Source: an uncultured bacterium (GTDB taxonomy: Bacteria; Planctomycetota; UBA1135; GCA-002686595). Taken from it: a stretch of DNA of 64,000 nucleotides. Of the stretch, positions 9,564 through 52,915 are shown piece after piece; position 1 is the stretch's first letter, and every line of letters starts with the position of its first letter. A program made the position numbers and the translations under genes. Where the stretch lies: assembly GCA_943787795.1 (NCBI GenBank), contig CALSNU010000002.1, forward strand, positions 736,001 through 800,000, in the 5' to 3' direction. The notes below the pieces were generated by a model. The model saw only the letters and a program-made list of their open reading frames with translations, was not told the DNA's origin and ran no database searches.

Positions 9564-9907
9564 GGGCGGCAGCGTAGCTGGGTCGGGCGGCTGGGATCGA
9601 GGGACTGGAGGGTTCCCCCCCTGAAGTCGCCTTCGCCTGGGAGGCTGCAGGGGACGCGAGCTGGGCAGGGTGGCAGAAGGCGAGACGATCTGACGCTCTC
9701 CGATCACGGGCCGCTCTGCTTGGCATGCCTTCCCTGCGACCGATGGGGGGCCCTGCGACCGATGGAGGGGCATCCGGCGACACAGGTTGAGACGGAGGCC
9801 AAGGGGACGCTGCAAGCCAAGGGGGATTCCCCTCGTGGTGGGTTCGGCCCCACCCCGAATCTGGCCGCCAAGGGCACACTGGAGCCGTGCTCCACGTCTC
9901 CACCACC

Positions 9908-11573
9908 ATGAAGTCCTCCCTTGTCGCCCTCGCCTCGGCCCTTCTCCTCCACGGGACCAGCGGCGCGCAGGTCCAGTTCGAGGACATCACCGACGCGGCC
10001 GGCCTCGCGGTGCCCCAAGGGGCAGGTCTCCAAATCGGCTTCGGTGCCGGGCTGGAGCAGCTGCAGATGACGGGTGGAGCCGCCGCAGGTGACTTCAACG
10101 GGGATGGCTGGGTGGACCTCTTCGTCACGATGCTCGATCGGCACGACGTGCTGTTCGCGAACCTCGGCGTGGACGCCAACGGCGAGCATCGCGGGTTCCG
10201 AGACGTGACGGCCCGGTGCTTCCCGGCCCCCGGGCCCGGCCCGCGCAGCAACGGCGCGGTCTTCGGGGACATCGACAATGACGGGGACGAGGATCTCTAC
10301 CTCACCTCCGTCGGCACCACGCGCTACCAGCTGTGGATCAACGATGGTGAGGGACACTTCCGCGAGCGGGCGCGCCAGCGCGGCGCCGCCGTGGAGACCA
10401 CGCGCTTTCACTCGGGCCAGAGCCCGGTGTTCGCCGACTTCGACCGGGACGGGTGGCTCGACCTGTACGTGACCGAGTGGGTCCTCATGCACCCCGCCTT
10501 CCCCGTCGCGCCGCACACGCGCCTCCTGCGCAACCTTGGCGCCGCGGCCCCGGGCCACTTCGAGGACGTCACCGCCGCGGCCGGGCTCGACCTCGGGATG
10601 GAGACGGGCTCTAGCGCCCTCGGGAACCCCACCGGCGCGTTCCAGTTCACGCCCCGCTTCTCTGACCTGGACGGGGACGGCTGGCCAGACCTGGCCATCG
10701 CAGGCGACTTTCTGACGAGCCACCTCTTCTGGAACAACGGCGACGGGACCTTCACGGAGGGGACCGCAGCGGCCGGGGTCGGGTGGCGACCAGAACGGCA
10801 TGGGCGCGACCATCGCGGACTACAACGGCGACGGGCTCCTGGACTGGTTCGTGACCTCGATCTACGACCGGGTGAACGATTGCACCCAGGGCGGCTGCGG
10901 GTGGGGTTCAACGGGGAACCGGCTCTACCTGAACACGGGCGCGCGCACGTTCGTGGACTGGACCGATCAGGCGGGGGTCCGAGATGGCGGATGGGGCTGG
11001 GGCGCCACGAGCCTGGACTACGACAACGACGGGGACGTGGACCTGACGATGACCAACGGCATCGACTGGGAGGCCCTCTCCAACGACGACCACTTCATCG
11101 ACGACCCCATGCGCCTGTGGCGGAACGAGCACGGGATCTTCACCGACGTCGCCCAGTCCGTGGGCCTGACCGCGACGGCCAAGGGCAAGGGCTACCTGAC
11201 CCTGGACTTCGACCGCGACGGCGACCAGGACCTCTACGTGGTCCACCACGGCGAGCTCCCCGTCCTCTACGAGAACGTGGGGGGCAACCAGAACGACTGG
11301 CTCCAGCTCGACCTGGTGGGCAGCGCCTCCAACCGTGACGCCGTGGGCGCCTTCGTGATCCTTCGTGCCGCGCCGGGTGCGCCCCAGCAGGTCCGCGAGA
11401 CCAGCCGCGGCAGCAACTTCCTCTCCTCGGATGAGGACCTCGTGCACTTCGGCCTCGGCCCGCCCACCTCCATGGGCACCGTCGTCCGCATCGAGATCCG
11501 CTGGCCCAGCGGTCAGACCACCGTGCTCACGGACGTGCCGCGGAATCAGCGGCTGACCGTCGTGGAGCCCTGA
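9908..11573 (+). pseudogene. CRTAC1-family FG-GAP repeat / ASPIC-UnbV protein, split by a +1 frameshift near 10781-10783
   Basis: Signal peptide; DFNGDGWVDLFV, DIDNDGDEDLY, DFDRDGWLDLYV repeats; C-terminal SNRDAVGA...VHFGLG...IEIRWPSG. Removing one G restores AAAGVGGDQNGMGATIADY. Could be a sequencing error. Confidence 0.8.
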
Positions 11574-11823
11574 GGGGGCGGGCCCGGGAAGGGGCAGCGC
11601 GGGGTGATGTGGATCGAGCCGGCGCCCTTCACCTGGGGCTCGGTGCCCGGGTGGAGCGGCCGGGGCGGGGTCGAAGGCGGAGCGTTCAGGTCGGGGAGGG
11701 CCTGCCCCTCGGCCGGGCGGGGTGGGCCCCCTGCGGGCGGGGCTCACGGCGCGAGCGGTGCCCAGGGGCCCCAGAGGGCGCTGACCTGGCGTGATCCGGG
11801 GGGAGGGGGCTAGGGTGGAGGGG

Positions 11824-13805: not shown

Positions 13806-14174
13806 ATGAAACTCTTCTCTCTCCCCACTGCCCTAGTCACTGCCGGACTCGCCTCGATCGCCCTCGCCGCCGCGCCGGTCGGTACCCCGGTCGAAGCGAC
13901 CACGCTCGACGTCACCGGCGCCTCGATGTTCCACGGTCAGCAGGTCCTGTTTGACGCGAACAACGCGAGCTTTGGCAGCCAGATGTACTACGGCGGCAAC
14001 GTCGTCCAGTACGGCGGCAGCCACATGATGTTCTTCAAGGACCCTGTGACCAACGTTGACACGCGCATTTGGCTTAGGGCTGAGGATTGCGCCCTTAGAG
14101 TCCACATGACCAACTTCAGTACCTGCGGCGATATCCAGTACCTGCGACCTGGTACCAACGGGTTCCAGCAGTGA
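13806..14174 (+). CDS. Small secreted hypothetical protein (122 aa)
   Basis: Clear signal peptide MKLFSLPTALVTAGLASIALAA; beta-rich mature region with two Cys; AT-rich upstream region and hairpins downstream. Confidence 0.75.
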   Translation: MKLFSLPTALVTAGLASIALAAAPVGTPVEATTLDVTGASMFHGQQVLFDANNASFGSQMYYGGNVVQYGGSHMMFFKDPVTNVDTRIWLRAEDCALRVHMTNFSTCGDIQYLRPGTNGFQQ

Positions 14175-14402: not shown

Positions 14403-14974
14403 CTGTTGGGTCTCGACGGACCACGCCTTGGGATCGTGGGGGGGGAGGACCATGCCACGGGCCCTGCAGAACATGGCCAACTGGATGCCGGCGCGCTAGC
14501 AGAGCCCTGGTGGCCTCTCACTCGCCGTCCGAAATGGCTGGGGGAAGCGGCTCGTGGTCCGTTGCCCTGAAGGCTGACCGGCGTCTTGGCCGGCATTGGA
14601 ACCACCCCCCAGCCGCGACCGATGGCCCGCCTCCACTCAGGCTGCGCATCGCTCGTTGTCAGGCGAGAGATCTAGATTCTCCCAAAGACCTCGCCCGTGA
14701 GGTGCCGATGGCCCTTACGGACAAAGCCGAGCAAGCGGCTCTTGTCTTCGGTTCCTAGCGCTCAGCGATGCCGCTGCCCGTAGAGCGTCTGAAGCTCGAG
14801 GCCCGGCAACGGCCTCCGGAGAAGTCGAGACGTCGGTCCATTTCTCAGCCCGATCCGTCCCATCAATCAACTCTCGAGGATGCCTCTGGATTCAGCGCGC
14901 GCTAGGCTGAAATCACGGTTGTCCTTGCCTCCATCTCGCTCCTGCGCAGCTAGGAGCCTCCTCCGCTTTCGAGA

Positions 14975-16825
14975 TTGATGTACCGTTCTCTTCGCGATCT
15001 GCTCTCTATGGTCCCACCGAGGACTCGCTGGATGACCCTGTGGGTCGCCCTTCTGGGCATCCTCGCGGCCGGGTCTGAGCTCTTGCTCCTGCTCGGGCTC
15101 GAGGGCTTTATCGGCGCTCTCAACGGGAGCGCTTCCAGGACGGAGGGGATAGCTGGCCGCTTGGTTGGCACTCTGGAAGACACCTTCGGTTCGGGGATTC
15201 CCGCCATGGGGGCTCTTCTCGTCTTCGCAGCCATCGTCACGAACGCTCTGCGGATCGGGGCGCTCTGGGTCTCGATGAGTGTCTCCAACAGGATTGGCGC
15301 CGAGTTGTCCGCGGGGCTCTTTGGGCGGATCATCCGAAAACCGTACCTCTACTTCGCCGGGGTGCCCTCGGCGGAGATTCTCGCTGCTTCCAATAAGGTC
15401 GCCGGGCTTTCGAACGGCGTCCTGCTCCCGATCTGCAACCTCGCCACGGCGTTCTTCAGTATCGCCCTACTCGGGGCAGCGATCTTCAGCGCGTCCTGGG
15501 AGTTCGCGCTGGTGGCGCTGCTCACCGTGGGGGTCGCGTACGTCCTCGTTGGACTACGGGCTCGTAGGAGTGTCGAACGTAATTCGAGGCTCATCGCGAG
15601 GATTCTGACCGAGAAGAACAGCCTTGTGATCGAGTCTATTGGTGGCATTCGCGACGTGATCCTTGGCAACCGACAGGAACTGATGGTCTCCGGGTTCCTC
15701 TCGCTAGACCTTCGCCAGCGGATACGCATCGTGCGGAATCAACTTTGGGTCAACCTACCGCGGTTCGTCCTTGAGGCCCTTGCGATCATCTCCATCGTCG
15801 CCGCTGCATTCTTGTCCCTTCGAGAAGGGTCCTCGGGTGCCTTGACTCTGGAGGCGCTGGCGTTCCTTGGCGTCGCAGCGTTGAGGCTCTTACCGAACGT
15901 GCAGCGCTTCTACCAGTCTTGGGGACAGATCGTGTCCCAGACGGGCAACGTCGAGGACTCGATCGCGGTCCTCCGCTCGAATTCAGGGCTGGATGGAGTC
16001 GAGCAGCCGGACAACCTGAATCCAGAGAGGGCGCTGGAGGTGTTTGACTGCATGCGTTTGGCCGATGTCGCCTTCCGCTATCCGAGTGCTAGCGCGGAGG
16101 TCTTCAGCGGAGTCAATCTGGCCATCGAGCGCGGGGCGTGCGTGGGCATCTTAGGCCCGACGGGAGGAGGGAAGAGTACGCTCGTTGACCTTCTCCTCGG
16201 CCTCATTCAACCGACGAGCGGAGAGGTTCTGCTCGGCGATGAACCGTTGGGGGGTGACCTCCGGTTTGACTGGCGAGCCTGCCTGGCTCATGTTCCCCAG
16301 AGTATCTTCCTCGTGGATGGGTCCTTCACGGAGAACATCGCGCTGGGCCAGCCGGCCCGCGAGGTCGACCTCGAGCGGGTGAAGGAGGCGGCGAGGATGG
16401 CCTGCGCGATCGACTTCATCAATGCGACCCCCGACGGCTTTGACTCTCCCGTTGGAGAGCGTGGGAGCCAACTCTCGGGCGGAGAGAGGCAGCGGGTCGG
16501 CATCGCCCGCGCTCTCTACTCAGGTGCTCCGGTCCTGGTCCTCGACGAGGCAACCAGCGCGCTGGATGACGATACGGAGCGACGCTTGATGGCGAATATT
16601 CGGGAGAAGACGACCGACCTGACGCTCATCATGATCGCCCATCGCCTGAACACCCTGCAGAACTGCGACCAGCTGATTCGGGTGCACTCCGGCTCGGTCG
16701 AGGTACTCTCTAGCCTCGAAGATCTCGAACGCCAAGAGCTGGGAGAGGGCCAGGATATTGAAGTGAGCCTCACGCCCTCGGCAGTCCCGAGGCCGGACGG
16801 GCACCCGGGTGGAGGGGCAGAATGA
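14975..16825 (+). CDS. ABC exporter, fused TMD plus ATPase (MsbA/PglK-like, glycan-cluster type)
   Basis: About 6 TM segments; Walker A GPTGGGKST, LSGGERQRVGIARA, LVLDEATSALD, IAHRL. Confidence 0.9.
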   Translation: MMYRSLRDLLSMVPPRTRWMTLWVALLGILAAGSELLLLLGLEGFIGALNGSASRTEGIAGRLVGTLEDTFGSGIPAMGALLVFAAIVTNALRIGALWVSMSVSNRIGAELSAGLFGRIIRKPYLYFAGVPSAEILAASNKVAGLSNGVLLPICNLATAFFSIALLGAAIFSASWEFALVALLTVGVAYVLVGLRARRSVERNSRLIARILTEKNSLVIESIGGIRDVILGNRQELMVSGFLSLDLRQRIRIVRNQLWVNLPRFVLEALAIISIVAAAFLSLREGSSGALTLEALAFLGVAALRLLPNVQRFYQSWGQIVSQTGNVEDSIAVLRSNSGLDGVEQPDNLNPERALEVFDCMRLADVAFRYPSASAEVFSGVNLAIERGACVGILGPTGGGKSTLVDLLLGLIQPTSGEVLLGDEPLGGDLRFDWRACLAHVPQSIFLVDGSFTENIALGQPAREVDLERVKEAARMACAIDFINATPDGFDSPVGERGSQLSGGERQRVGIARALYSGAPVLVLDEATSALDDDTERRLMANIREKTTDLTLIMIAHRLNTLQNCDQLIRVHSGSVEVLSSLEDLERQELGEGQDIEVSLTPSAVPRPDGHPGGGAE

Positions 16826-17002
16826 TGTCGGCCAAGATTGATCACCTCAGCTCGCTGACCGAAGTCGGGACCCTGACGAGTCTGGGGCGCGAAATCACGA
16901 GCCCCCCGGCCATGACCCTACCATGCGGGCGATCGGGAGCGCCCCGCCGCGGTGGAGGACTCGCCCTGCGGGTTCTTCGGAGAGGGGGCTCCTTGAAGAG
17001 CC

Positions 17003-18481
17003 ATGCTTGATCCCCTCCACGCATTTCTTGAGGTCGCCTCCCGGCACGGAGAGATCCCAGCGATCGTCGAGCAGGGCCTGGTGACCACCTATGCGGATCT
17101 TGAGTTCCTCGCCCGCCGCTTCGCTGGGGAGTTCATACGCGAAGCCAGCGCTCATCCGAAGGTGGCCATCTGTCTGCCGCAGACCGCTGCTGCGTACGCC
17201 TCGATGTTCGGCGCCATGCTCGCCGGCGGGTTCTATGCGCCCGTCAACATCGGCGCGCCGCTCGATCGCCAAAGACAGATCCTCAGTCAATTCGATCCAG
17301 AGGTGATCGTCGCCGAAGAAGGAAGTGTCGGCGCCTACTCCAGCATCGCGGGCCGCGCGCGGGTCGTCACCTCGGACATCAGCGCTGAGCCGCTCTGTGA
17401 TCCAAGACCAGGACACGACCTCGTCTACGTCATCTTCACATCAGGGACGACCGGCAAGCCCAAGGGCGTCCGAATCCGTCGGGCCTCTCTTGGGCATTAT
17501 GCCTCTTGGGCGCGTCGAGCTATGCGGGTCCAGCCCGGTGAGCGGTGGTCTCAACATCCGAACATCGGCTTCGATCTCAGTGTCCTCGACATCTTTGGCG
17601 CATTGACCGCCGGCGCTTCCCTGTACCCGCTTCAGACGAAGATGGACCGTTTGCTCCCCGGTGCGTTCGCCGGGAAGAACCGGCTCGAGATATGGAACTC
17701 TGTCCCCAGCCTCATCGACCTCATGATTCGAGGACGATGCCTCACCACAGCCAACTTCAAGAGCGTTCGCCTGATGACATTCTGCGGTGAGCCGCTCCTG
17801 AAGAGGCACCTCGACGCAATCTTCGAGGCGGCGCCCCACGTGGTGGTGCACAACACCTACGGCCCCACCGAGGCCACGGTCTCCTGCACCCTCGAGGTCC
17901 TGGACCGTGAGTCCTACCGAGGGAAGTCGAAATCGAGCGTCGTGCTTGGACAGCCGATCGACGGAATGCACCTTCGAATCGGTGAAGAAGAGAGCGTGGG
18001 TGAGATCCTGATTGCCGGCCCGCAAGTAGCAGACGGGTACTGGGACAACCCAGAGGAGACGTCCGCGAGGTTCTTCGAGATGGAGTGCGGTGGAGAGATG
18101 CTCCCGGCCTATCGCTCGGGAGACTGGGCCGAGTTGATTGGCGAGGACATGTACTTCTCAAACAGGATCGACGATCAGGTCAAGATCCGCGGCAACCGTG
18201 TCGAGTTAGGGGAGATCGAGGCGACCATCAGCCACCTGTTCATGTGTGAGGCGTACGTCGTTGTCGTCGACGAAGAGCTTCATTGCGCTGTTACGCAGGA
18301 TTCCAAGCTCGACCTCATTGAGCTCCGCGCGAGACTCTCGGATGTCCTTCCTGAGTACGAGCTCCCTAGTTCCTTGAAGTCGCTCGATAGGATTCCGGTC
18401 AACGTCAACGGCAAGGTGGACCGTCGGCAACTGCGGGAGACGATCAGTGCGAAGCTGAAGGAGGACGCACGAGATGAGTGA
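17003..18481 (+). CDS. dltA: DltA-like D-alanine-activating adenylation enzyme (stand-alone A domain)
   Basis: YVIFTSGTTGKPKGV, FDLSV, FCGE (the Cys typical of DltA), NTYGPTEATV, YRSGD, QVKIRGNRVELGEIE, NGKVDR. Confidence 0.8.
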   Translation: MLDPLHAFLEVASRHGEIPAIVEQGLVTTYADLEFLARRFAGEFIREASAHPKVAICLPQTAAAYASMFGAMLAGGFYAPVNIGAPLDRQRQILSQFDPEVIVAEEGSVGAYSSIAGRARVVTSDISAEPLCDPRPGHDLVYVIFTSGTTGKPKGVRIRRASLGHYASWARRAMRVQPGERWSQHPNIGFDLSVLDIFGALTAGASLYPLQTKMDRLLPGAFAGKNRLEIWNSVPSLIDLMIRGRCLTTANFKSVRLMTFCGEPLLKRHLDAIFEAAPHVVVHNTYGPTEATVSCTLEVLDRESYRGKSKSSVVLGQPIDGMHLRIGEEESVGEILIAGPQVADGYWDNPEETSARFFEMECGGEMLPAYRSGDWAELIGEDMYFSNRIDDQVKIRGNRVELGEIEATISHLFMCEAYVVVVDEELHCAVTQDSKLDLIELRARLSDVLPEYELPSSLKSLDRIPVNVNGKVDRRQLRETISAKLKEDARDE

Positions 18482-18725
18482 TTCAGAGCGAGACCTTCTT
18501 GGTGTGGTCGTTGAGGTCATCGCGGAGCTTGTGCTTGATCGTGGAGCGTCGATCGACTCGTCCACCGTGCTGACCTCTGTGATGGACTCCTTCGGTCTGC
18601 TTGATGCAATTCTCATGATCGAGGAGCGTTCGGGAATGTCGGTGGATCTTGCGGAAATCCAGGTAGAGGGTGACCTCACGATCGGATTGCTGGTGCGAGA
18701 GGTCTTGCGGTTGAATGGTCGTTGA
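18474..18725 (+). CDS. Acyl/aminoacyl carrier protein (DltC-like)
   Basis: 83 aa, acidic, MDSFGLL phosphopantetheine site; overlaps the dltA-like stop. Confidence 0.8.
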   Translation: MSDSERDLLGVVVEVIAELVLDRGASIDSSTVLTSVMDSFGLLDAILMIEERSGMSVDLAEIQVEGDLTIGLLVREVLRLNGR

Positions 18726-18728
18726 AGA

Positions 18729-19334
18729 ATGGGCGATTCCGAGAGCAGCGCCCTGATTGACATCGCCTCGATCCCTGCGGCGGATCGTGAAGGCGCGGCC
18801 GAGCTGATCATCGAGGCGTTACCCGGCTTCTACGGGCAGGAACGACTGAGGCCGGTGATGGTCTCGGCCGTGGCCAGGACCCTCGGCCTAGTTGGCACCG
18901 ACACGGCGACGGGTTTCGCCGCCGGGAGCGAGCAAGGTGTCAGGGGGGTGCTGACCTATACCAGTGCGGACAAGCTGGATCTGGCGAGGCTGGGGGGCGT
19001 CCAGCAGCTGTTGAGGGCCCTCGACCCGGACTCCCGGCGCCTCTTCAGAGAACACCTTCGGGACTATGACGCGGACTTCGCCGTGGCGCCCTCTGGTACC
19101 TGTTACCTGAGCCGTGTTGCGGTGCGGACCGAGGCCCGAGGCGGCGGCCTCGCCGAGCGCATGATGCGCCACTGGATGCAGGAGGTTGAGTCGGACCACG
19201 CTAACGGCTTCTCGCTTCACGTAGATCGGTCGAACGCCCGTGCCATTCGGTTCTACGAGCGCCTTGGGTTTGTGGATACCCTCGCGGAAGGCAAGTTCCT
19301 GCTTCTCACGCGGGAGAGGGGGGACTCTCGATGA
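18729..19334 (+). CDS. GNAT-family N-acyltransferase
   Basis: YLSRVAVRTEARGGGLAERMM (motif A) and LHVDRSNARAIRFYERLGF (motif B). Confidence 0.88.
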   Translation: MGDSESSALIDIASIPAADREGAAELIIEALPGFYGQERLRPVMVSAVARTLGLVGTDTATGFAAGSEQGVRGVLTYTSADKLDLARLGGVQQLLRALDPDSRRLFREHLRDYDADFAVAPSGTCYLSRVAVRTEARGGGLAERMMRHWMQEVESDHANGFSLHVDRSNARAIRFYERLGFVDTLAEGKFLLLTRERGDSR

Positions 19335-19906
19335 CCACCGCAGCTGATCGAGCGCGAAGCGGCTATCGGCGGATCGAGTCGAGGGCCGACTTCCTCGAAT
19401 TCCTCCGGCTCGACCTGGGCGCCCGCGGCTTGACGGCGGTTCCCTGGCTCTGCTCCTTCAGGCGTCCTCTGGTGGCCTACACCGTGATGATGCGGAGGGT
19501 CGAGTACTTGCAGTCCAAGCGCCTCGGCTTCTTCGGGCGGTCTTGGCTAAAGTGGCGCCTCTGGAGGTTGAAGATGTACGGAGCGCGGCTCGGGCTCTCG
19601 ATGGTCCCGGGGACTTTTGGTCCCGGGCTCTTCATCGTCCACCATGGGAGCATCGTGATCAGTAGCGAGGCTCGGTTCGGTTCGCGGACGAGGATCCACT
19701 CGTGCGTGAATGTCTCCGGGGCGCCAGTATTCGGGGATGACGTCTACCTGGGCCCTGGTGCCGTCGTCGTGGGTGACGTTGACGTTGGCGACCGAGTTCG
19801 TGTCGGCGCGAACAGTGTCGTATCTCGACCGGTCAAGACTGGATCCACCGTGTTGGGTGTGCCTGCTCGGGTGATCAAGGTCGACTCGAACGCCGAGGAC
19901 GGCTAA
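19331..19906 (+). CDS. Hexapeptide-repeat (LbH) O-acyltransferase, CysE/WcaB-like
   Basis: FGPGLFIVHHGSIVIS, PVFGDDVYLGPGAVVVGDVDVGDRVRVGANSVV, GVPARVIK; ATGA overlap with the GNAT gene. Confidence 0.85.
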   Translation: MTTAADRARSGYRRIESRADFLEFLRLDLGARGLTAVPWLCSFRRPLVAYTVMMRRVEYLQSKRLGFFGRSWLKWRLWRLKMYGARLGLSMVPGTFGPGLFIVHHGSIVISSEARFGSRTRIHSCVNVSGAPVFGDDVYLGPGAVVVGDVDVGDRVRVGANSVVSRPVKTGSTVLGVPARVIKVDSNAEDG

Positions 19907-19919
19907 GGGAGCAGTACCC

Positions 19920-20990
19920 TTGGAATCTGCCGTCCTAGAGGTGAGCAGGGCTGCCATTGCCCATAACTACGACGCCATCTCCCGCGCTGTACCTGGGTCG
20001 GAGGTCATGGGGGTCGTGAAGGCCGATGGCTACGGGCACGGTGCCGTTGAGGTTGCGCGGGTGCTAAGCGAAGCGGGCGCGAGGACAGTCGGTGTGGCGT
20101 CGTGCGACGAGGCAGTCGAGCTGCGTCAGCACTTAGGCTTCCCGCTGGAGCGCCTGCAGGTCGTCGTGTTGGGCGGCGTCGCGGACCCCGAAGAGGCCGC
20201 GGCGTGTGAGATCTGGGGACTGACTCCGGTCATCCATGATCTGGAGCAGTTTTGTTGGCTCGAGACGGCTGGTTTCACCGGGCGATTCTGGGCCAAGATT
20301 GACACGGGCATGAGTCGGCTGGGCCTTCGCGATCTGAATGCCTTTCGGCAGTGCGTTACCGATGCTCGCAGGTTGCCTGAGTATCTGATGAGCCACCTGG
20401 CATGTGCCGATGACCGGGACCACCCGCTGAACACAGAGCAATGGTCGCGATTCGTAGGCGAGTTGGAGCGTTGGCCGGAGGGCGTCAGCGGCTCGCTCTT
20501 GAACAGCGCAGGCGTGGCGAACTTCTCCGACTGGGGACTCGGGGTCGTTCGACCTGGCATCGGCATCTACGGTGGGAGTGGGGAGCTCAACGAGACGCTC
20601 GGCCTTCGGCGAGCTTCCGTGCTACGGGCGAGGGTCAAGCAGGTGAGGTTGGTCCGAGCAGGCCGCACCGTCTCGTATGGCGCTACCCATCAGTTCCTCA
20701 GAGATTCGAGGATTGCAGTCCTTGGCATCGGGTACGCAGACGGAATGCCCTGGCACCTCTCCGGAGTAGGGCGGGTCTCCTTCGGCGGAGAGCTGTGCCC
20801 GATCGTCGGCCGAGTGTGCATGGACTACACGATGGTGGACGTCTCGGGGACCGAGGTGGAGCCGGGCGACATGGTCGAGGTCTGGGGAGGGATCGACGGC
20901 CTCGATGAGGTTGCCGAGATGGCAGGGACCATCGGTTACGAGCTGCTCACGCGGCTCGGCTCCAGGGTGCGGCGCGTGTACGTGGACTGA
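19920..20990 (+). CDS. alr: Alanine racemase
   Basis: VVKADGYGHG (PLP Lys), KIDTGMSRLG, MSHLACAD, VRPGIGIYG, VSYG (catalytic Tyr), GYADG, GRVCMD, GTIGYELL; TTG start. Confidence 0.95.
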   Translation: MESAVLEVSRAAIAHNYDAISRAVPGSEVMGVVKADGYGHGAVEVARVLSEAGARTVGVASCDEAVELRQHLGFPLERLQVVVLGGVADPEEAAACEIWGLTPVIHDLEQFCWLETAGFTGRFWAKIDTGMSRLGLRDLNAFRQCVTDARRLPEYLMSHLACADDRDHPLNTEQWSRFVGELERWPEGVSGSLLNSAGVANFSDWGLGVVRPGIGIYGGSGELNETLGLRRASVLRARVKQVRLVRAGRTVSYGATHQFLRDSRIAVLGIGYADGMPWHLSGVGRVSFGGELCPIVGRVCMDYTMVDVSGTEVEPGDMVEVWGGIDGLDEVAEMAGTIGYELLTRLGSRVRRVYVD

Positions 20991-21046
20991 GCGGAGAATG
21001 CCGTCTAGGTGGCCCCCACCCGATGACGGGCTCTGGCCTCGATGCC

Positions 21047-21104
21047 CTGAGCCGGGGCTCGGGCGCTGGTCGTGGAGTGAACCGGTCTCTGGTGGGTCGG
21101 AGCG
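21047..21104 (+). repeat. Right copy of a degenerate direct repeat flanking the D-Ala island
   Basis: CTGAGCCGGgGcTCGG...GAaCCGGTCTCTGGTgGGTC.GAGCG, matching 14351-14402. Confidence 0.55.
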
Positions 21105-21106
21105 TC

Positions 21107-21387
21107 TCAGTGAAAGTCCCTCGACCCCGCGCTGATGCCGGCGGCGAGGTCGTCGAGGCTCTCGGAGCGGTCGACGATCAGGTGGACCACCCCGCCTGAG
21201 CGGTCGATGCGGCCGTGGACGAGGAGGAGGACGCCGTCGCGGGCGGTGGCGCTCTTAGGTGTTGGGGTGGACGACGAGGTTGGAGGTGCCGGTCTCGTCC
21301 TCGAGGGTGATGAAGATGATCCCCTGGGCGGTGGCGGGGCGCTGGCGGACGAGGACCATGCCGGCGACGGCGACGCGGGCGTCCTGG
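21107..21387 (-). pseudogene. Diverged 3' fragment of dnaE2 (OB-fold end), frameshifted
   Basis: Aligns to 26175-26463 ([29 protein letters not shown]...GSRDFH*) with substitutions and loss of one GGTGGCGC 8-mer. Confidence 0.9.
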
Positions 21388-21788
21388 ACGGCGGATGGGG
21401 CTGGGGCGCGACGAGACTCGACGACGACAACGACGGGGACCAGGACCTCTACGTGGTCCACCAAGGCGAGCTCCCCGTCCTCTACGAGAACGTGGGCGGG
21501 AACCAGAACGACTGGGTCCAGCTGGACCTGGTGGGCAGCGCCTCCAACCGCGACGCCGTGGGCGCCTTCGTGCGCCTCACCGCCGCGCCGGGGGCGCCCG
21601 AGCAGGTGCGCGAGACCAGCCGCGGCAGCAACTACCTCTCCTCGGACGAGGACCTGGTGCACTTCGGTCTCGGCCCGCCCACCTCCATGGGCACCGTCGT
21701 CCGCATCGAGATCCGCTGGCCCAGCGGCCAGACCACCGTGCTCACGGATGTGCCGCGCAACCAGCGCCACACCATCATCGAGCCCTGA
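21387..21788 (+). pseudogene. Diverged 3' fragment of the CRTAC1/ASPIC-UnbV gene with an internal deletion
   Basis: Matches ~10983-11035, then jumps to ~11225-11573 between two D.DGD repeats; no start codon or signal peptide. Confidence 0.9.
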
Positions 21789-21904
21789 AGTCGGCGGGAC
21801 CGGGGTAAGGCGCCCTGGAACTTCCATTTGCCGCGTAACTTCCGCGGCGCCGCGCGGTTCGACGCCGAGGACCCGCTCGCACCGGCTGCACCCTTCCCAC
21901 GCCC

Positions 21905-26147: not shown

Positions 26148-26174
26148 CTGCAGCTGGACGGAGCCCCTGCGCGC

Positions 26175-29100
26175 TCAGTGGAAGTCCCTCGACCCGCCCT
26201 GCATTCCGGCGGCGAGGTCGTCGAGGCTCTCGAAGCGGTCGACGATGAGGTGGACGACCTCGCCCGCGCGGTCGATGCGGCCCTCGACGAGGAGGAGGAC
26301 GCCGTGGCGGGCGGTGGCGCGGTGGCGCTCGTAGGTCCTGGGGTGGACGACGAGGTTGGAGGTGCCGGTCTCGTCCTCGAGGGTGATGAAGATGATCCCC
26401 TGGGCGGTGGCGGGGCGCTGGCGGACGAGGACCATGCCGGCGACGGCGACGCAGGCGTCCTGGGGGCAGCGGGTGGGGTCGAGGAGGGCGGCGGCGGTGA
26501 GGGCGCCGCGGCGGTCGAGGGCGGGGCGCAGGAAGGAGACGGGGTGGGCCTTGAGGGACAGGCCCTGGGTGGCGTAGTCGCGGACCACCTCGGTGAGGGG
26601 GGCGATGGGGGGCAGGGCCTCGGCGCCGGCGCCGCCGTCGGTGTCCACGTGGGCGAAGAGGCCGGGCTCGGAGAGGTCCTCGTCCCGTAGGGCGCGCACG
26701 GCCCAGAGGGCGGCCTTGCGATCGAGCTCGAGGGAGCCGAAGGCGTCGGCGGAGGCCAGGGGACGCAGGCGGGAGGCGCGCAGGCCGGAGCGGCGCTGGA
26801 GCTCGTCCACCGAGCGGAAGGGGCGGCCCAGGCGCTCGCGGGCTGTGGCGATGGCGTCGGCGGCGGGCCGGCGCAGGCCCTTCACGAGGCGCATGCCCAG
26901 GCGCAGGGCCGCGCCCTCCATGGAGCAGTCCCACTGGCTGTGGTTCACGTCGACCGGGCGCACCTCGACCCCGTGGCGCTCGGCGTCCTGGACGAGCTGG
27001 GCGGGGGCGTAGAAGCCCATGGGCTGGCTGTTGATCAGCGCGCCGCAGAAGGCGCCGGGGTGGTAGAGCTTGAGCCACGAGGACACGTAGACCAGCAGCG
27101 CGAAGCTCGCGGCGTGGGACTCGGGGAAGCCGTACTCGCTGAAGCCCTCCAGCTGGCGGAAGATGCGCTGGGCGAAGGCCTCGTCGTAGCCGTTGTCGAG
27201 CATGCCCTCCACCAGCTGCTCGCCGTAGCGCTGCATCAGGTCGCTCTTGCGCTTCCACGCGGCCATGGCCCGCCGCAGCTTGTCTGCCTCGCCGGGCGTG
27301 AAGCCGGCGGCCACCACCGCCAGCGCCATGGCTTGCTCCTGGAAGAGCGGCACGCCGAGGGTCTTCTCGAGCACCCGCCGCACCTCCGGGCTCGGGTAGG
27401 TGACCGCCTCGGTCCCGTCCCGCCGCCGCAAGTAGGGGTGCACCATGTCCCCCTGGATCGGCCCCGGCCGCACGATCGCCACCTCGACCACCAGGTCGTA
27501 GAACTCCACCGGCTTCAGCCGCGGCAGCATCGACATCTGCGCCCGCGACTCGATCTGGAAGACGCCCATGGTGTCGGCGCGGCAGATCATCTCGTACACC
27601 GCCGGGTCCTCGGGCGGGATGGTGTGCATGGTGAAGCCGCCGGCCTCGGGCACCTCGAAGCCGCGCTCCTCCCCGCTCTCGTCCACCAGCTCGAAGGTCT
27701 TGCGGATGGCAGTGAGCATCCCGAGGCCCAGGAGGTCCACCTTGAGGATCCCCAGCGCGTCGATGTCGTCCTTGTCCCACTCGATCACCGTGCGGTCCGC
27801 CATGGACGCGTTCTCGATGGGGACCATCTCGGTCAGGAGGTCCTCGGTGATCACGAAGCCGCCCACGTGCTGGGAGAGGTGGCGGGGGAAGCCGAGGATC
27901 TCCTTGGTCAGCGCCACGAAGCGGCGGGTGGCGGGCGCCTGGGGGTCGAGGCCGTGGGCGGCGAGGCCCACGCTGCCGTTCTCCTCGGCGGCGGCGCCGA
28001 CGCCGTCGGTCCACCAGTCGATGTCCTTGGCGAGGGCGTCCACCAGCTCCGGCGAGAAGCCGAGCGCCTTGCCAACGTCCCGCACGGCGCTGCGGCCGCG
28101 GTAGCTGATGACCTCGGCGGTCAGCGCGGCGCGGTCCCGGCCGTAGCGCCGGTACACGTACTGCAGCACCTCCTCGCGCCGCTCGTGCTCGAAGTCGATG
28201 TCGATGTCGGGCGGTTCGCCGCGCTCCTTGGAGAGGAAGCGCTCGAACAGCAGGTCGATACGGTCGGGGTCCACCGCCGTCACCCCGAGGCAGTAGCACA
28301 CCGCCGAGTTCGCCGCCGCGCCGCGCCCCTGGCACATGATCTCCCGCGACCGGGCGAAGCGCACGATGTCGTGCACCGTGAGGAAGTACGGCGCGTAGTC
28401 GAGCTCCTCGATCAGCTGGAACTCGTGCTCGATGCGCGCCCGGGTCTCGGGCGGCACGCCGTGCGGGTAGCGCTCCGCCGCCCCGAGCCAGGTCTCGTCC
28501 ACCAGGGTCTCCAGGGCCGTCCGCCCGTCCGTGCGCACCTCCGAGGGGTAGTGGTAGCGCAGCTCCGAGAGGGAGAAGCGCGCCGCCTCCTGGGCCAGCT
28601 CCGCCGCGCGCGCCGTGAGGTCGTCGTGGCCGCGGAACAGGGCCGTCATCTCGGCCGGCGTCTTCAGGCGCCGCTCGGCGTTGGGGAACAGGTCGGCGCC
28701 CACGGTGTCCACGGGCCGGCCCACGCGGATGGCGGTGAGCACGTCCTGCAGCGCCCGCCGCCGCCGCTCGTGGTAGTGCACGTCGTTGAGGGCGACCAGC
28801 GGCGCGTCCACCCGCGCCCCGAGGCGCGCGGTGCGCTCACGCTCGGCCCGGTCGTCGGGCCCGTACAGGGCGCAGGCCCCGAGGAACAGGCGGTCCGGGT
28901 TCATGGCGCCGCGCAGCCGGGACACGGCGCGCTCGTGCTGCGTCCAGGTCGGCTGCGCCACCGCGAGCTCCGGCGGGAGCACCACGGCGAGCAGGCCCTC
29001 CTGGTGCTCGAGCAGGTCGTCGAGCTCCAGGTGGCACGACCCCTTCTCCGCCCGCCGCTTGCCGCGGGTGAGCAGCCGCGAGAGCCGCCCGTAGCCCGCG

Positions 29101-51497: not shown

Positions 51498-52211
51498 TCA
51501 GGCTGCCGGTTCTTCGACCGTGCGGTTGCTGATCCAGAGGGCCACGAGCCCGCCGATGAGGATGGCCACGTAGAGCTGCCCGACGACGGCCTCGGCGGCG
51601 CACAGGAACTGGGCCCCGGGGGTGACCGGGATCACGTCGCCGTAGCCCAGCGTCGTGATGGTCACAAAGCTGAAGTAGACAAAGGGCGTATGCAAGCAGC
51701 TCGCGGCGGCGCTGGACCTGTCGATGAGGGCCACGCCACCCTCCTGGTAGGAGCCAGGTGAGACGCACTCGGTGACGATGTGAAGCTCCGCGAACATGAG
51801 CGCCATGAGGAGGTACACGTTGATCCCGCCCAGGAGCGTATCGCTCGATGGTGAGCGCTCTCGGGTCAGCGTGCGCATCAGGGTGACCGCGAGTACGCCG
51901 AGGTAGATCGCGCTGAGCGCGGACTTCAGCAGGGCCTTGTCGAGCGCCTCGTCCAGGATCCACGTCGCGAACCACTGGGCGCAGAGGTTGAAGAGGACGA
52001 GGACCCCCGCCAGCGCGAGGATCTTGCGCCCCTCGTTCGCGTTATTCGCGACCCAGAGGCCGGCGACGAGGATTCCGGTGAAGCCGACCCGAAGCGTGGG
52101 GATGCCCAGCGACGAGCTGCCCATGATGGGGATCAGGACGATGAACAGCACCAGCGCGATGAGCAGGGTGCCGAACGGCGCCTGCCGGCTGCGGTGGTCG
52201 GCGTTAATCAT
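51498..52211 (-). CDS. Potassium-channel family protein
   Basis: YFSFVTITTLGYGDVIP selectivity filter; EAVVGQLYVAILI; several TM helices. Confidence 0.9.
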   Translation of the reverse strand: MINADHRSRQAPFGTLLIALVLFIVLIPIMGSSSLGIPTLRVGFTGILVAGLWVANNANEGRKILALAGVLVLFNLCAQWFATWILDEALDKALLKSALSAIYLGVLAVTLMRTLTRERSPSSDTLLGGINVYLLMALMFAELHIVTECVSPGSYQEGGVALIDRSSAAASCLHTPFVYFSFVTITTLGYGDVIPVTPGAQFLCAAEAVVGQLYVAILIGGLVALWISNRTVEEPAA

Positions 52212-52915
52212 GCGTCGCGCCCGTCGCCTGCGGCGGCGGACCCTGCAGCGGCGGACCCTGCGGCGGCGGACCCTGCGGCGGCGGACCCTGCGGCGGCGGA
52301 ACCTGCGGCGGCAGACACTGCGGCGGCAGACCCTGCGGCGGCAGACCCTGCGGCGGCAGACCCTGCGGCGGTGACGGGCCTCCTCGGGAAGCGCTCGAGG
52401 ATCGCGCTGACCACGGCACTCGCTGCCTTGGCCGGATCTTCGCGCAGCTTCTTGGTGACGGTCCGGGCGGTCTTGCCGTGCCACACAGGCGCGTCACGCG
52501 CGGGATCGAAGAAGTCGATGCAGAGGGTGCCCTCGGTGTAGCGTCGGACGTCGGTCTGCTGGTAGTACGGCCCGCCCCACTCGTACATTCCTCGGCCGTA
52601 GAAGCTCGGATACTCGGTCTCCACGACGCGGTCGCGCGCGCCAAGGGTGAAGGAGACCACGAGGTCCGGCGCCTGCCCCTCTGGGCTCGCGCGGTAGCCC
52701 CGCGCGATGAGGTCCTCAGCGGCGGCGCGTTCGAGGTGCCCCGCGAGCATGGGGTTCATCCCCTCCGGTCCCGCGGCGACGGAGGAGGGCTTGAGGAAGG
52801 TGAATGTCTCGTAGGCCTCGAAGTCCACCGACGGGTCAAGGTCGGTATAGACGGGGGGGGCGACGCAGCTGGCGGTGAGCGCAAGCGAGAGGAGCAGCAA
52901 GGAGCGGTTGAGCAT
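52208..52915 (-). CDS. DUF4136 lipoprotein with a repetitive C-terminal tail
   Basis: Lipobox TASC; DFEAYETFTF, YTEGTLCIDFFD, VWHG, ILERFP; (AAAGS)n tail. Confidence 0.88.
   Translation of the reverse strand: MLNRSLLLLSLALTASCVAPPVYTDLDPSVDFEAYETFTFLKPSSVAAGPEGMNPMLAGHLERAAAEDLIARGYRASPEGQAPDLVVSFTLGARDRVVETEYPSFYGRGMYEWGGPYYQQTDVRRYTEGTLCIDFFDPARDAPVWHGKTARTVTKKLREDPAKAASAVVSAILERFPRRPVTAAGSAAAGSAAAGSAAAVSAAAGSAAAGSAAAGSAAAGSAAAGSAAAGDGRDA
52227..52371. repeat. 15-bp tandem repeat, ~9.5 copies
   Basis: (CCTGCGGCGGC[G/A]GAC)n encoding AAAGS units on the minus strand. Confidence 0.95.

Follow-up and report, generated by a model that had tools for sequence, protein, structure and literature searches.

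A six-gene cassette in a marine bacterium very probably belongs to a surface polysaccharide pathway, as judged by its gene families, gene order and homologous loci in other genomes. It would be a variant of carrier-based glycan aminoacylation, a theme related to known systems. The amino acid is probably D-alanine.

The cassette

The window is the whole 64,000-nucleotide stretch that was analysed. Inspection of open reading frames and motifs finds six intact open reading frames on the + strand at 14975-20990, followed by a scar:

14975..16825, + strand: MsbA/PglK/HepA-type ABC half-transporter, likely flippase for a lipid-linked repeat unit (PF00664 and PF00005)
17003..18481, + strand: stand-alone amino-acid adenylation enzyme, DltA/AlmE-like, D-alanine predicted (PF00501; pocket code DLLNTCTVSK)
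18474..18725, + strand: aminoacyl carrier protein, Ser39 in DSFG being the predicted phosphopantetheine site (profile match, not a single-sequence match)
18729..19334, + strand: single-domain GNAT, predicted N-acetyl cap enzyme for the aminoacyl group (PF00583)
19331..19906, + strand: EpsC/WcaB/CysE-like left-handed beta-helix (LbH) acyltransferase, predicted carrier-to-sugar transferase (PF00132)
19920..20990, + strand: alanine racemase (Alr), foreign origin (PF01168 and PF00842; TIGR00492)
21106..21804, no strand assigned: recombination scar, not in the pathway (about 90% identical to window 26174-26478 and 11202-11588)

The gaps between successive genes are 177, -8, 3, -4 and 13 nt. This bears out a preliminary description of the same DNA, which saw six co-oriented genes, the last five overlapping or nearly abutting, with Alr at the end. 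The motifs it listed (FDLSV, FCGE, NTYGPTEATV and DSFG) are all four found in the sequence.

The ABC protein has six hydrophobic segments, with Walker A, signature, Walker B and H-loop intact, and stays below every NCBIfam cut-off shown. The five soluble proteins have no membrane segments, and Pfam gives neither a condensation nor a thioesterase domain for any of the six. A promoter and terminator scan of the cassette gave nothing above shuffles (0 against 0.8; 3 against 4.0). The scar fuses two diverged copies, one of the dnaE2 3' end and the other of the 3' end of the upstream ASPIC/FG-GAP gene.

Two DNA runs that belong to other studies yield contigs that confirm the cassette DNA; one of these contigs covers 15542-21011 with 1 difference. 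A metagenome contig is 99.985% identical to window 14439-21315, and may come from the same sample. The joint 11224-21420 in contig X5 is not counted, one of its sides being 21 letters. Contigs X17 and X18, from RNA runs, span intergenic as well as coding DNA, and so indicate neither expression nor silence of the cassette.

Homologous polysaccharide loci

One Desulfobacteraceae genome and one Thermodesulfovibrionia genome carry the run of adenylation enzyme, carrier, GNAT and LbH, together with an ABC gene, inside a one-piece polysaccharide locus. These two loci are L244/G591 and L275/G592. Their adenylation enzymes are 47-48% identical to that of the cassette, and the cassette ABC is the best genome match of their ABC genes (32% for Desulfobacteraceae, 31% for Thermodesulfovibrionia). 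Conservation of the gene set in other genomes, which the preliminary description had named as a check, is found for these five genes in 2 loci.

The other genes of both loci match a block of glycosyltransferase, Wzy-like and sulfotransferase genes that lies 41 kb upstream of the cassette. An 18-kb run of L244/G591 holds 12 genes that, aligned over most of their length, find their best host counterpart either in the cassette (5 genes) or in the block at C2:695-707 kb (7 genes). The seven block matches are GT2 (51%), GT4 (45%), GT4 (37%), Wzy_C (26%), sulfotransferase (45%), GT2 (40-43%) and GT4 (47%). L275/G592 shows most of these correspondences again. The deacetylase of L244/G591 also has a host match, at 40%, and a NodB-like deacetylase is kept at all three loci. 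The Desulfobacteraceae locus is without an amino-sugar transaminase.

The G591 run continues with WecA-like, CpsB-like, Wzc-like and Wza-like genes. A Wzy-dependent set (glycosyltransferases, Wzy-like, Wzc/Wza, initiating transferase) is together in G591, and split in the host between C2:695-710 kb and C1:368-377 kb. The host's glycosyltransferases, Wzy-like protein, sulfotransferase and sugar-nucleotide enzymes are found 41-56 kb upstream of the cassette, its Wzc/Wza/WecA-like genes on another contig. The Wzy_C score is 24.1 in G591, under the Pfam cut-off of 31.7, and 40.9 in the host, over it. Among the scanned locus genes no Wzx-type match is found; a PglK/MsbA-like ABC stands there, and flipping by it is a prediction.

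Within the host, the codon usage of the cassette is at a distance of 0.038 from the block; the best of 231 control blocks reaches 0.050. The GNAT and the one block GT4 that was tested are missing in all 17 other genomes of the genus. The genes of the partner block are open reading frames.

The pathway had been described as self-contained, which it is not: besides the sugar block and the Wzc/Wza/WecA-like genes, the phosphopantetheinyl transferase gene is elsewhere, on a third contig. A lipid or small-molecule acceptor, also suggested at the time, is unlikely given the locus context. The broader proposal, carrier-based aminoacylation of an envelope glycan without DltB or DltD, gains support.

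Adenylation enzyme and carrier

Against the DltA models the adenylation enzyme scores 250 (cut-off 476) and 243 (cut-off 560), so under both. Its pocket code is common to 26 of 53 aligned adenylation rows, and agrees with DltA at 6 of 10 positions (the last Lys being assumed for DltA) and with AlmE at 4 of 10. Asp191, Leu192 and Cys261 correspond to D197/L198/C269 of DltA as given in the accessible part of PMC11253843. Thr285 is also as in DltA, where AlmE has Leu. On the other side, the pocket region finds its closest structural counterpart in glycine-specific AlmE, and Asn232, Thr259 and Ser294 are more polar than their DltA counterparts. The motifs once read as DltA hallmarks are indeed present, but do not establish D-alanine specificity, since the glycine-activating AlmE also has FDLSV and FCG.

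That the enzyme activates D-alanine is probable all the same. The substrate is favoured because a foreign Alr sits in the operon while none of the 17 other genomes of the genus has one. D-alanine, as proposed earlier, is the likeliest substrate, favoured by the pocket residues and the linked Alr.

As a single sequence, the carrier gives no Pfam or NCBIfam match. With a profile of 10 carrier sequences, matches to DltC and further peptidyl carriers appear at E values of about 1e-10 to 1e-9. D38 and S39 are invariant in 10 of 10 aligned carriers.

Alanine racemase

The Alr scores 264.5 bits against TIGR00492 (cut-off 168), and falls under the VanT cut-off (211 against 460). K34 and Y253, which we take to be the catalytic Lys and Tyr, align with those of solved Alrs. 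It is the single true Alr found in the host genome; a genome search for a second, housekeeping alr found none beyond it. In the rest of the family, 149 of 156 genomes have an Alr. In a FastTree tree whose members were picked for their similarity to the query, and from which no donor is claimed, the cassette Alr groups with Zeta- and Alphaproteobacteria-like sequences, apart from the family's own Alrs.

The gene starts 13 nt past the LbH stop, and shares the low GC3 of the cassette (0.77, where the genome median is 0.89). Full-length orthologues of GNAT, LbH and Alr, 84-90% identical, apparently occur in one second genome. Beyond the host, the Alr accompanies these genes in apparently only one close Planctomycetota relative, at 89% identity. 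As none of 47 related loci has an Alr, it is not the conserved pathway member that it was first taken for. The host genome also has a peptidoglycan cluster, MurC/E/F and a Ddl-like gene, so the Alr could serve peptidoglycan.

Related loci, GNAT and LbH

The 47 related loci were counted with profiles seeded from these same loci, which are 2.5-25 kb long and include near-duplicates. On that basis, 32 have an AAC(3)-type acyltransferase, 25 DUF4910, 10 a GNAT (6 of these with AAC(3)), 6 a formyltransferase (none with GNAT), 3 an LbH (none with AAC(3)), and 1 an MBOAT. Nonulosonate, Maf or DUF4910 genes are found in 29. The carrier adjoins the GNAT in 9 of the 10 GNAT loci, and in 4 loci the formyltransferase comes directly after the carrier. 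The host genome, which is 85% complete, gave 0 matches for AAC(3), DUF4910 and TviD_N-like genes.

LbH without AAC(3) is the pattern of three related loci and the host. These cluster in a quick version of the adenylation-domain tree (87/86 support), in which the sister L250 has AAC(3). A 15-sequence adenylation scan gave 80 loci at 25-33% identity and was swamped by generic NRPS domains; of these loci none but L151-L154 and L209 entered the analysis, where they served as outgroups.

The GNAT is one PF00583 domain of 201 aa, with no FemAB match. G138, G140 and A142, from the CoA-binding motif, are each conserved across 90% or more of 18 sequences, and its profile matches are single-domain N-acetyltransferases. 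In the family, 233 cluster representatives reach E<=1e-10. When genome and metagenome contigs were scanned, most matches were to the C-terminal motif; only L038 (which is locus L001) and L059 are clear full-length matches, and full-length matches adjoin an adenylation gene. A search of the ESM Atlas with the GNAT returned generic GNAT clusters only. Three of 10 looked-up GNAT relatives possibly share a contig with an LbH relative, a hint that is not counted as loci.

A Fem-like transfer by the GNAT had been suggested earlier, with N-acylation as the other option. Of a Fem-like role it can be said that the single domain, the CoA motif, the missing FemAB match and the AAC(3) alongside in 6 of 10 loci speak against it. 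With AAC(3) present in those loci, and the formyltransferase never found next to it, the GNAT is more likely than not the N-cap enzyme. This leaves LbH as the likely transferase; given a GNAT cap, there is a good chance that LbH carries the group from carrier to sugar. Its best NCBIfam matches are of WcaB/EpsC type, all under cut-off (67.6 against 150 for the EpsC model), and it falls in a tight subfamily of 52-59% identity with a shortened loop. The GNAT is missing from L004, which has an adenylation enzyme, a carrier and an LbH, and two Alphaproteobacteria loci without AAC(3) have a TviD_N-like protein directly after the GNAT. The LbH family at large also occurs in sugar loci without the module: relatives in L310 and L311 have no adenylation, carrier or GNAT match within 1.5 kb. 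LbH may therefore be a plain O-acetyltransferase.

Proposed pathway and alternatives

The analysis shows the genes with their families and intact motifs, the order in which they stand and the homology between loci, and each reaction below is deduced from these. Alr would produce D-alanine, with which the adenylation enzyme would charge the arm on carrier Ser39. The GNAT would then N-acetylate the carrier-bound D-alanine, and, still in the cytoplasm, LbH would pass the N-acetyl-D-alanyl group to a sugar in the lipid-linked repeat unit. The accepting group might be a hydroxyl of the sugar, or else an amine that the NodB-like deacetylase exposes. The ABC transporter would flip the decorated unit for Wzy-type polymerisation. 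The full scheme is tentative, and has rather less than even chances of being right throughout.

More speculative is the generalisation that adenylation enzyme, carrier, an interchangeable N-cap and a swappable AAC(3), TviD_N-like or LbH enzyme form a portable kit, a general cytoplasmic route to N-acyl-D-alanyl sugars in diderm surface glycans. Here a WcaB-type enzyme would use an aminoacyl-carrier donor, and a genus that had lost Alr would have re-imported it to run the kit. This seems somewhat unlikely as a whole.

The same pathway, also with D-alanine, could run with the GNAT as carrier-to-sugar transferase and LbH as an ordinary sugar O-acetyltransferase. The GNAT does adjoin the carrier in nearly all its loci, four of the ten and the host lack AAC(3), LbH relatives exist without the module, and GNAT-fold enzymes that use acyl-carrier substrates exist. 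This division of roles is nevertheless unlikely: the formyltransferase takes the same slot as the GNAT and never stands alongside it, six GNAT loci have AAC(3) as well, the CoA-binding motif is conserved, L004 manages without a GNAT, and the TviD_N-like protein stands right behind it in the two Alphaproteobacteria loci without AAC(3). About as unlikely is that the polysaccharide is decorated with glycine or D-serine, the Alr being a bystander or a peptidoglycan supply. The AlmE match, the three polar pocket positions, the lack of Alr in related loci and the peptidoglycan cluster all fit that reading; the code being nearer DltA, with a DltA-type Thr285, does not. Nor do the close spacing of Alr to LbH, its shared low GC3, the relative with an 89% identical Alr that apparently has GNAT and LbH too, and the 17 genomes that do without Alr.

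It is improbable that the cassette is a stranded, non-working remnant, cut off from its glycosyltransferases. The 41 kb distance and the scar behind it would suit a remnant, but the six open frames and catalytic motifs are intact, the full-length orthologues are apparently kept in a second genome, the DNA is nearly invariant in the runs of other studies, and the partner block has open frames. A small aminoacyl metabolite, made by the module and exported by the ABC protein, is very improbable. L010 does lie among NRPS, MbtH, TauD and carbamoyltransferase genes, and the ABC is of exporter type; the loci nearest to the cassette, though, are of the polysaccharide kind and have this ABC too, most related loci have nonulosonate, Maf or DUF4910 genes, and condensation and thioesterase domains are absent. 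Least probable is a true Dlt-like relay with a distant genomic MBOAT as DltB. The genome is only 85% complete and has three MBOAT genes elsewhere, but these score 128-155 against a DltB cut-off of 375 and have a host-like GC3 of 0.92-0.94. DltD was not found, and a single related locus has an MBOAT.

Relation to known systems

The absence of MBOAT and DltD that was noted for the window holds up: there is no MBOAT match on its contig, and in the genome as a whole DltD was not found and the MBOATs fall far short of the DltB cut-off. The DltD search (PF04914) gave 0 matches in the 85%-complete genome, and matched in 2 of 14 controls. With DltABCD, which D-alanylates teichoic acids, the cassette shares a stand-alone adenylation enzyme, the Asp/Leu/Cys pocket and a DltC-like carrier. 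It differs in its sub-cut-off adenylation enzyme and in lacking DltB and DltD, and is predicted to differ in cytoplasmic transfer, a capped amine that adds no positive charge, and a Wzy-type polysaccharide acceptor.

Vibrio cholerae AlmEFG, which glycylates lipid A, similarly combines adenylation enzyme, carrier and a non-MBOAT transferase in a diderm, and AlmE is the pocket match. The cassette, however, has no lipid A acyltransferase among its six proteins (Pfam, NCBIfam), a code nearer DltA, and a link to glycosyltransferases rather than lipid A. Fem aminoacyl transferases, which are two-domain and tRNA-fed, have the GNAT fold in common with the single-domain, CoA-motif GNAT of the cassette. 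The WcaB/EpsC-type LbH O-acetyltransferases are the nearest named relatives of the cassette LbH, which stands apart as a short-loop subfamily placed after the carrier/GNAT pair; the accessible text of PMC4443731 calls WcaB acetyltransferase-like and does not give a precise role.

The same adenylation subfamily occurs in the DUF4910/AAC(3)/carrier loci for nonulosonic acid acyl exchange (Campylobacter Cj1295 and Clostridium CA_C2195 regions). The host instead has LbH and a NodB-like deacetylase in a Wzy-type locus, with no AAC(3) or DUF4910. Cj1295 is required for an acylated pseudaminic acid, according to the available portion of PMC3068675. The neighbourhood of carrier and N-acetyltransferase is not new: it has been published, with adenylation proteins listed in the supplement (PMC4000134, as far as its accessible text goes). 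An NRPS-like enzyme in the Clostridium difficile type B flagellin locus found no support in the accessible parts of the literature.

N-acetyl-D-alanyl sugars occur in marine Gram-negative polysaccharides (PMC3210612), and Gram-negative polysaccharides are known to contain these as well as further N-acyl-D-alanyl sugars (PMC3210612, PMC7685785). In the accessible parts of these papers the attachment enzyme is at most named, as a single 'alanyltransferase'. The available part of PMC9676051 likewise names an alanine transferase 'alt' and gives no mechanism, and the carriers treated in PMC4875605 are fatty-acid carriers only. A literature search, whose coverage mostly excluded subscription papers, found no account of the set of adenylation enzyme, carrier, GNAT and LbH.

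Through the cassette it would become testable how the N-acetyl-D-alanyl groups of some bacterial polysaccharides arise, and with four small soluble proteins this could be done in vitro. Capped D-alanine, if true, would introduce an epitope with a D-amino acid and lack the effect on charge that Dlt and Alm have, and would thus play a different role. Sister versions are present in cultured strains. Mesorhizobium sp. 131-2-5, in which the version is on a plasmid, has adenylation enzyme, carrier and GNAT in a Vi-like locus, with another pocket code; the other strains are Desulfoluna butyratoxydans and Magnetospirillum sp. SS-4.

The cassette and its DNA

The six open reading frames that a preliminary description had claimed as a D-alanylation cassette are present where it placed them, and the genes are real:

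Window 14975-20990, + strand: ABC transporter, adenylation enzyme, carrier, GNAT, LbH (left-handed beta-helix acyltransferase), alanine racemase (Alr)

Pfam and NCBIfam identify an MsbA/PglK-type ABC half-transporter, an AMP-binding enzyme, a GNAT, a hexapeptide-repeat protein and an alanine racemase; the 83-aa carrier matches neither. Of the six, only Alr passes an equivalog cut-off. Intergenic gaps are 177, -8, 3, -4 and 13 nt, and GC3 is 0.62-0.79, versus a genome median of 0.89.

A metagenome contig matches window 14439-21315 at 99.985%. DNA contigs from two other studies cover the cassette, and one contig bridges it and the upstream host gene. The stretch is contained, whole or in part, in 20 of 24 listed runs, every one marine, and near-identical proteins in public records carry the Planctomycetota label.

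Just 5' of the cassette, at 13806-14174, an ORF of 122 aa begins with a signal-like stretch; its GC3 is low (0.80), and Pfam gives no match for it. The FG-GAP/ASPIC gene at 9887-11573 lies in two frames (9887-11338, 10800-11573), a frameshift or assembly error. A scar at 21106-21804 consists of 90%-identical copies of the 3' ends of dnaE2 (26174-26478) and the ASPIC gene (11202-11588); the ASPIC copies form a direct repeat roughly 10.2 kb apart, flanking the cassette together with a sulfatase and a small ORF. Two 15-nt tandem arrays occur at 52197-52401 and 57608-57727.

A probable split polysaccharide locus

The pathway had been described as self-contained. It is not: the cassette very probably makes up one half of a polysaccharide locus, and homologues of most other genes of a related locus sit in a block outside the window. 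A motif scan yielded 49 stretches. The gene set is conserved in two of them: in L244 (Desulfobacteraceae, genome G591) and L275 (Thermodesulfovibrionia, genome G592) the genes for adenylation enzyme, carrier, GNAT and LbH follow one another as they do here.

L244 run, first part: ABC, methyltransferase, GT4, four module genes, GT4, Wzy_C, sulfotransferase, GT2, GT2
L244 run, continuation: methyltransferase, GT4, deacetylase, two GT4s, WecA-like, ligase-TPR, CpsB-like, Wzc-like, Wza-like
Block in this genome, C2:695-710 kb: GT2 and GT4 genes, Wzy_C protein, sulfotransferase, epimerase, TviB-type dehydrogenase, NodB-like deacetylase

The L244 genes were searched against this genome's whole predicted proteome; most of the matches recur with L275. 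Identity of the L244 genes to the window cassette is 32% for the ABC, 48% for the enzyme, 32% for the carrier, 41% for the GNAT and 54% for the LbH. The remaining locus genes match the block at 26-51%, except that the first methyltransferase, galE and one late GT4 of L244 match best elsewhere in this genome. A transaminase is missing from the G591 locus, and the deacetylase is kept in all three loci; two DegT-type genes lie elsewhere in this genome.

The block ends 40.7 kb before the cassette ABC, beyond the window. None of 231 control blocks comes as close to the cassette in codon use. One tested block GT4 is absent from all 17 other genus genomes, and the cassette GNAT from all 173 family genomes. 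Wzc-, WecA- and Wza-like genes are at C1:368-374 kb. That the cassette belongs to a polysaccharide pathway is very probable.

Low-GC3 glycan genes also occur at C2:715555-717977 and C1:87-95 kb (a second sulfotransferase-like gene, GT2s, an FkbM methyltransferase). One of these GT2s is 42% identical to an L275-locus gene, so additional pathway pieces may be scattered.

Relation to known systems

Dlt, Alm and Fem had all been invoked, and membership fails for each. The cassette is not a Dlt relay, in line with the preliminary description: a DltD match is absent from the genome (85% complete), and its three MBOATs, all on contigs other than the window's, score far below the DltB cut-off (128-155 versus 375). 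Their codon use is host-like. The cassette is nevertheless predicted to work like DltA/DltC and AlmE/AlmF.

The motifs FDLSV and FCG, earlier taken as DltA hallmarks, do not fix the substrate; AlmE carries both. AlmE, which activates glycine according to passages in a review (PMC11253843), is the best structural match for residues 180-330 of the adenylation enzyme. The ten-position pocket code is DLLNTCTVSK, shared by 26 of 53 aligned rows; in alignments to known structures it agrees with Bacillus cereus DltA at 6 of 10 positions and with AlmE at 4 of 10. The three residues that the review assigns to D-alanine binding, Asp, Leu and Cys, are all present in the pocket. It has Thr where AlmE has Leu, which may be the review's 'Leu to Thr' position. 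The carrier's Asp38-Ser39 is kept in all ten aligned relatives, a profile built from it matches DltC, and the genome has one phosphopantetheinyl transferase.

Within a Labrenzia cluster of NRPS, MbtH, TauD and carbamoyltransferase genes (L010 350-16263) lies a subfamily member with code DLPNTCTVAK, which seems to have been recruited to small-molecule synthesis.

The AAC(3)/DUF4910/carrier neighbourhood is already in print, in passages of PMC4000134 and PMC3068675, as is the product chemistry of N-acetyl-D-alanyl sugars in those of PMC3210612. Literature searches, covering passages matched by term and one paper's supplements, turned up no account of the adenylation-carrier-GNAT-LbH gene set. 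The window adds this GNAT-LbH version of the module, the split locus and an apparently re-imported racemase.

Partner genes

The census spans 47 loci: 15 of 16 from a first set (one duplicate dropped), 30 of the 49 motif-scan stretches (after removal of 18 repeats and of a stretch lacking an adenylation match), L231 and L282. The carrier was detected in 39, AAC(3) in 32, DUF4910 in 25, cassette-type GNAT in 10, formyltransferase in 6, cassette-type LbH in 3, MBOAT in 1 and Alr in none; these counts are not independent, as profiles were seeded from the same loci, spans vary and some loci are near-duplicates.

AAC(3) accompanies the GNAT in 6 of 10 GNAT loci. GNAT and formyltransferase never occur together among the 47, and the latter directly follows the carrier in four. 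The CoA-binding motif is kept across the GNAT family. Searched alone against 401 genomes, the GNAT profile gave two matches, both adjoining an adenylation enzyme and only one new. From these patterns the GNAT is read as a putative N-acetyl cap, exchangeable for a formyl cap.

GNAT loci lacking AAC(3) carry either the cassette-type LbH, in L244, L275 and the window, or a TviD_N-like protein, in L231 and L242 (an atlas lead at 0.94). In this genome there is neither an AAC(3) nor a DUF4910 or TviD_N-like gene, which leaves LbH as the candidate transferase. Against this role, wider LbH relatives are found without the module, and the loci with LbH group together in the tree of adenylation enzymes.

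L231 4249-25428, on a plasmid of a cultured Mesorhizobium strain (NZ_AP023250.1), is a Vi-like capsule locus with adenylation enzyme, carrier, GNAT, TviD_N-like protein, ABC-2 permease and export protein; its dehydrogenase and epimerase are 59% identical to this genome's. The adenylation enzyme is on four Mesorhizobium plasmids. In Beijerinckiaceae-like genomes (L011, L012, L015) an isolated adenylation enzyme and carrier pair precedes a secreted-looking protein; AAC(3), GNAT and LbH were not detected at these loci. A conserved protein of ~630 aa without a Pfam family recurs in nonulosonate-type loci (L001 16835-18748, L003 15502-17391, L235, L282).

Proposed pathway

In the most likely scheme, Alr would convert L-Ala to D-Ala. 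The adenylation enzyme would form D-alanyl-AMP, then a thioester on the carrier, where the GNAT would N-acetylate the D-alanine. LbH would transfer it to a sugar of an undecaprenyl-linked repeat unit. The ABC would flip this unit, and Wzy, Wzc and Wza would polymerise and export the product. The five enzymes (all but the ABC) have no membrane segments, so transfer would be cytoplasmic, without need of DltB. The whole chain, from Alr to export, is tentative, and less likely than not when taken in full.

Alanine racemase

A second, housekeeping alr was sought in the rest of the genome; the cassette Alr is the only true one. The three other PF01168 matches are an Orr-like racemase, YggS and an aldolase/dehydratase-like protein. 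PF00842 is in 149 of 156 family genomes outside the genus versus 0 of 17 other genomes inside it. In a tree, the window Alr falls outside the clade with most sampled family and order Alrs, among Zeta-/Alphaproteobacteria-like sequences. A relative of Alr (89% identity) is on a 42,725-bp contig, equal in length to those of the GNAT (84%) and LbH (90%) relatives, whose accessions are adjacent. In G591 and G592, Alr is outside the module loci.

The strongest indication that the module needs D-alanine is that a lineage otherwise lacking Alr has one added to its cassette; this falls short of proof. As a counterpoint, the genome also has MurC, MurE, MurF, MraY, MurG, a Ddl-like gene and an Orr-like racemase.

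The Mur and Mra genes and the divergent Ddl-like gene (219/243) are at C5:131-143 kb and C6:222812-223894. Although alanine racemase is in none of the 17 other genus genomes, a comparable PF07478 match occurs in most members of the genus. These bacteria may obtain D-alanine by another route or use a different stem peptide. The Orr-like PLP racemase (353/480) lies behind a DUF1611 gene (G000:C1:848553-850882) and is in 4 of 18 genus genomes.
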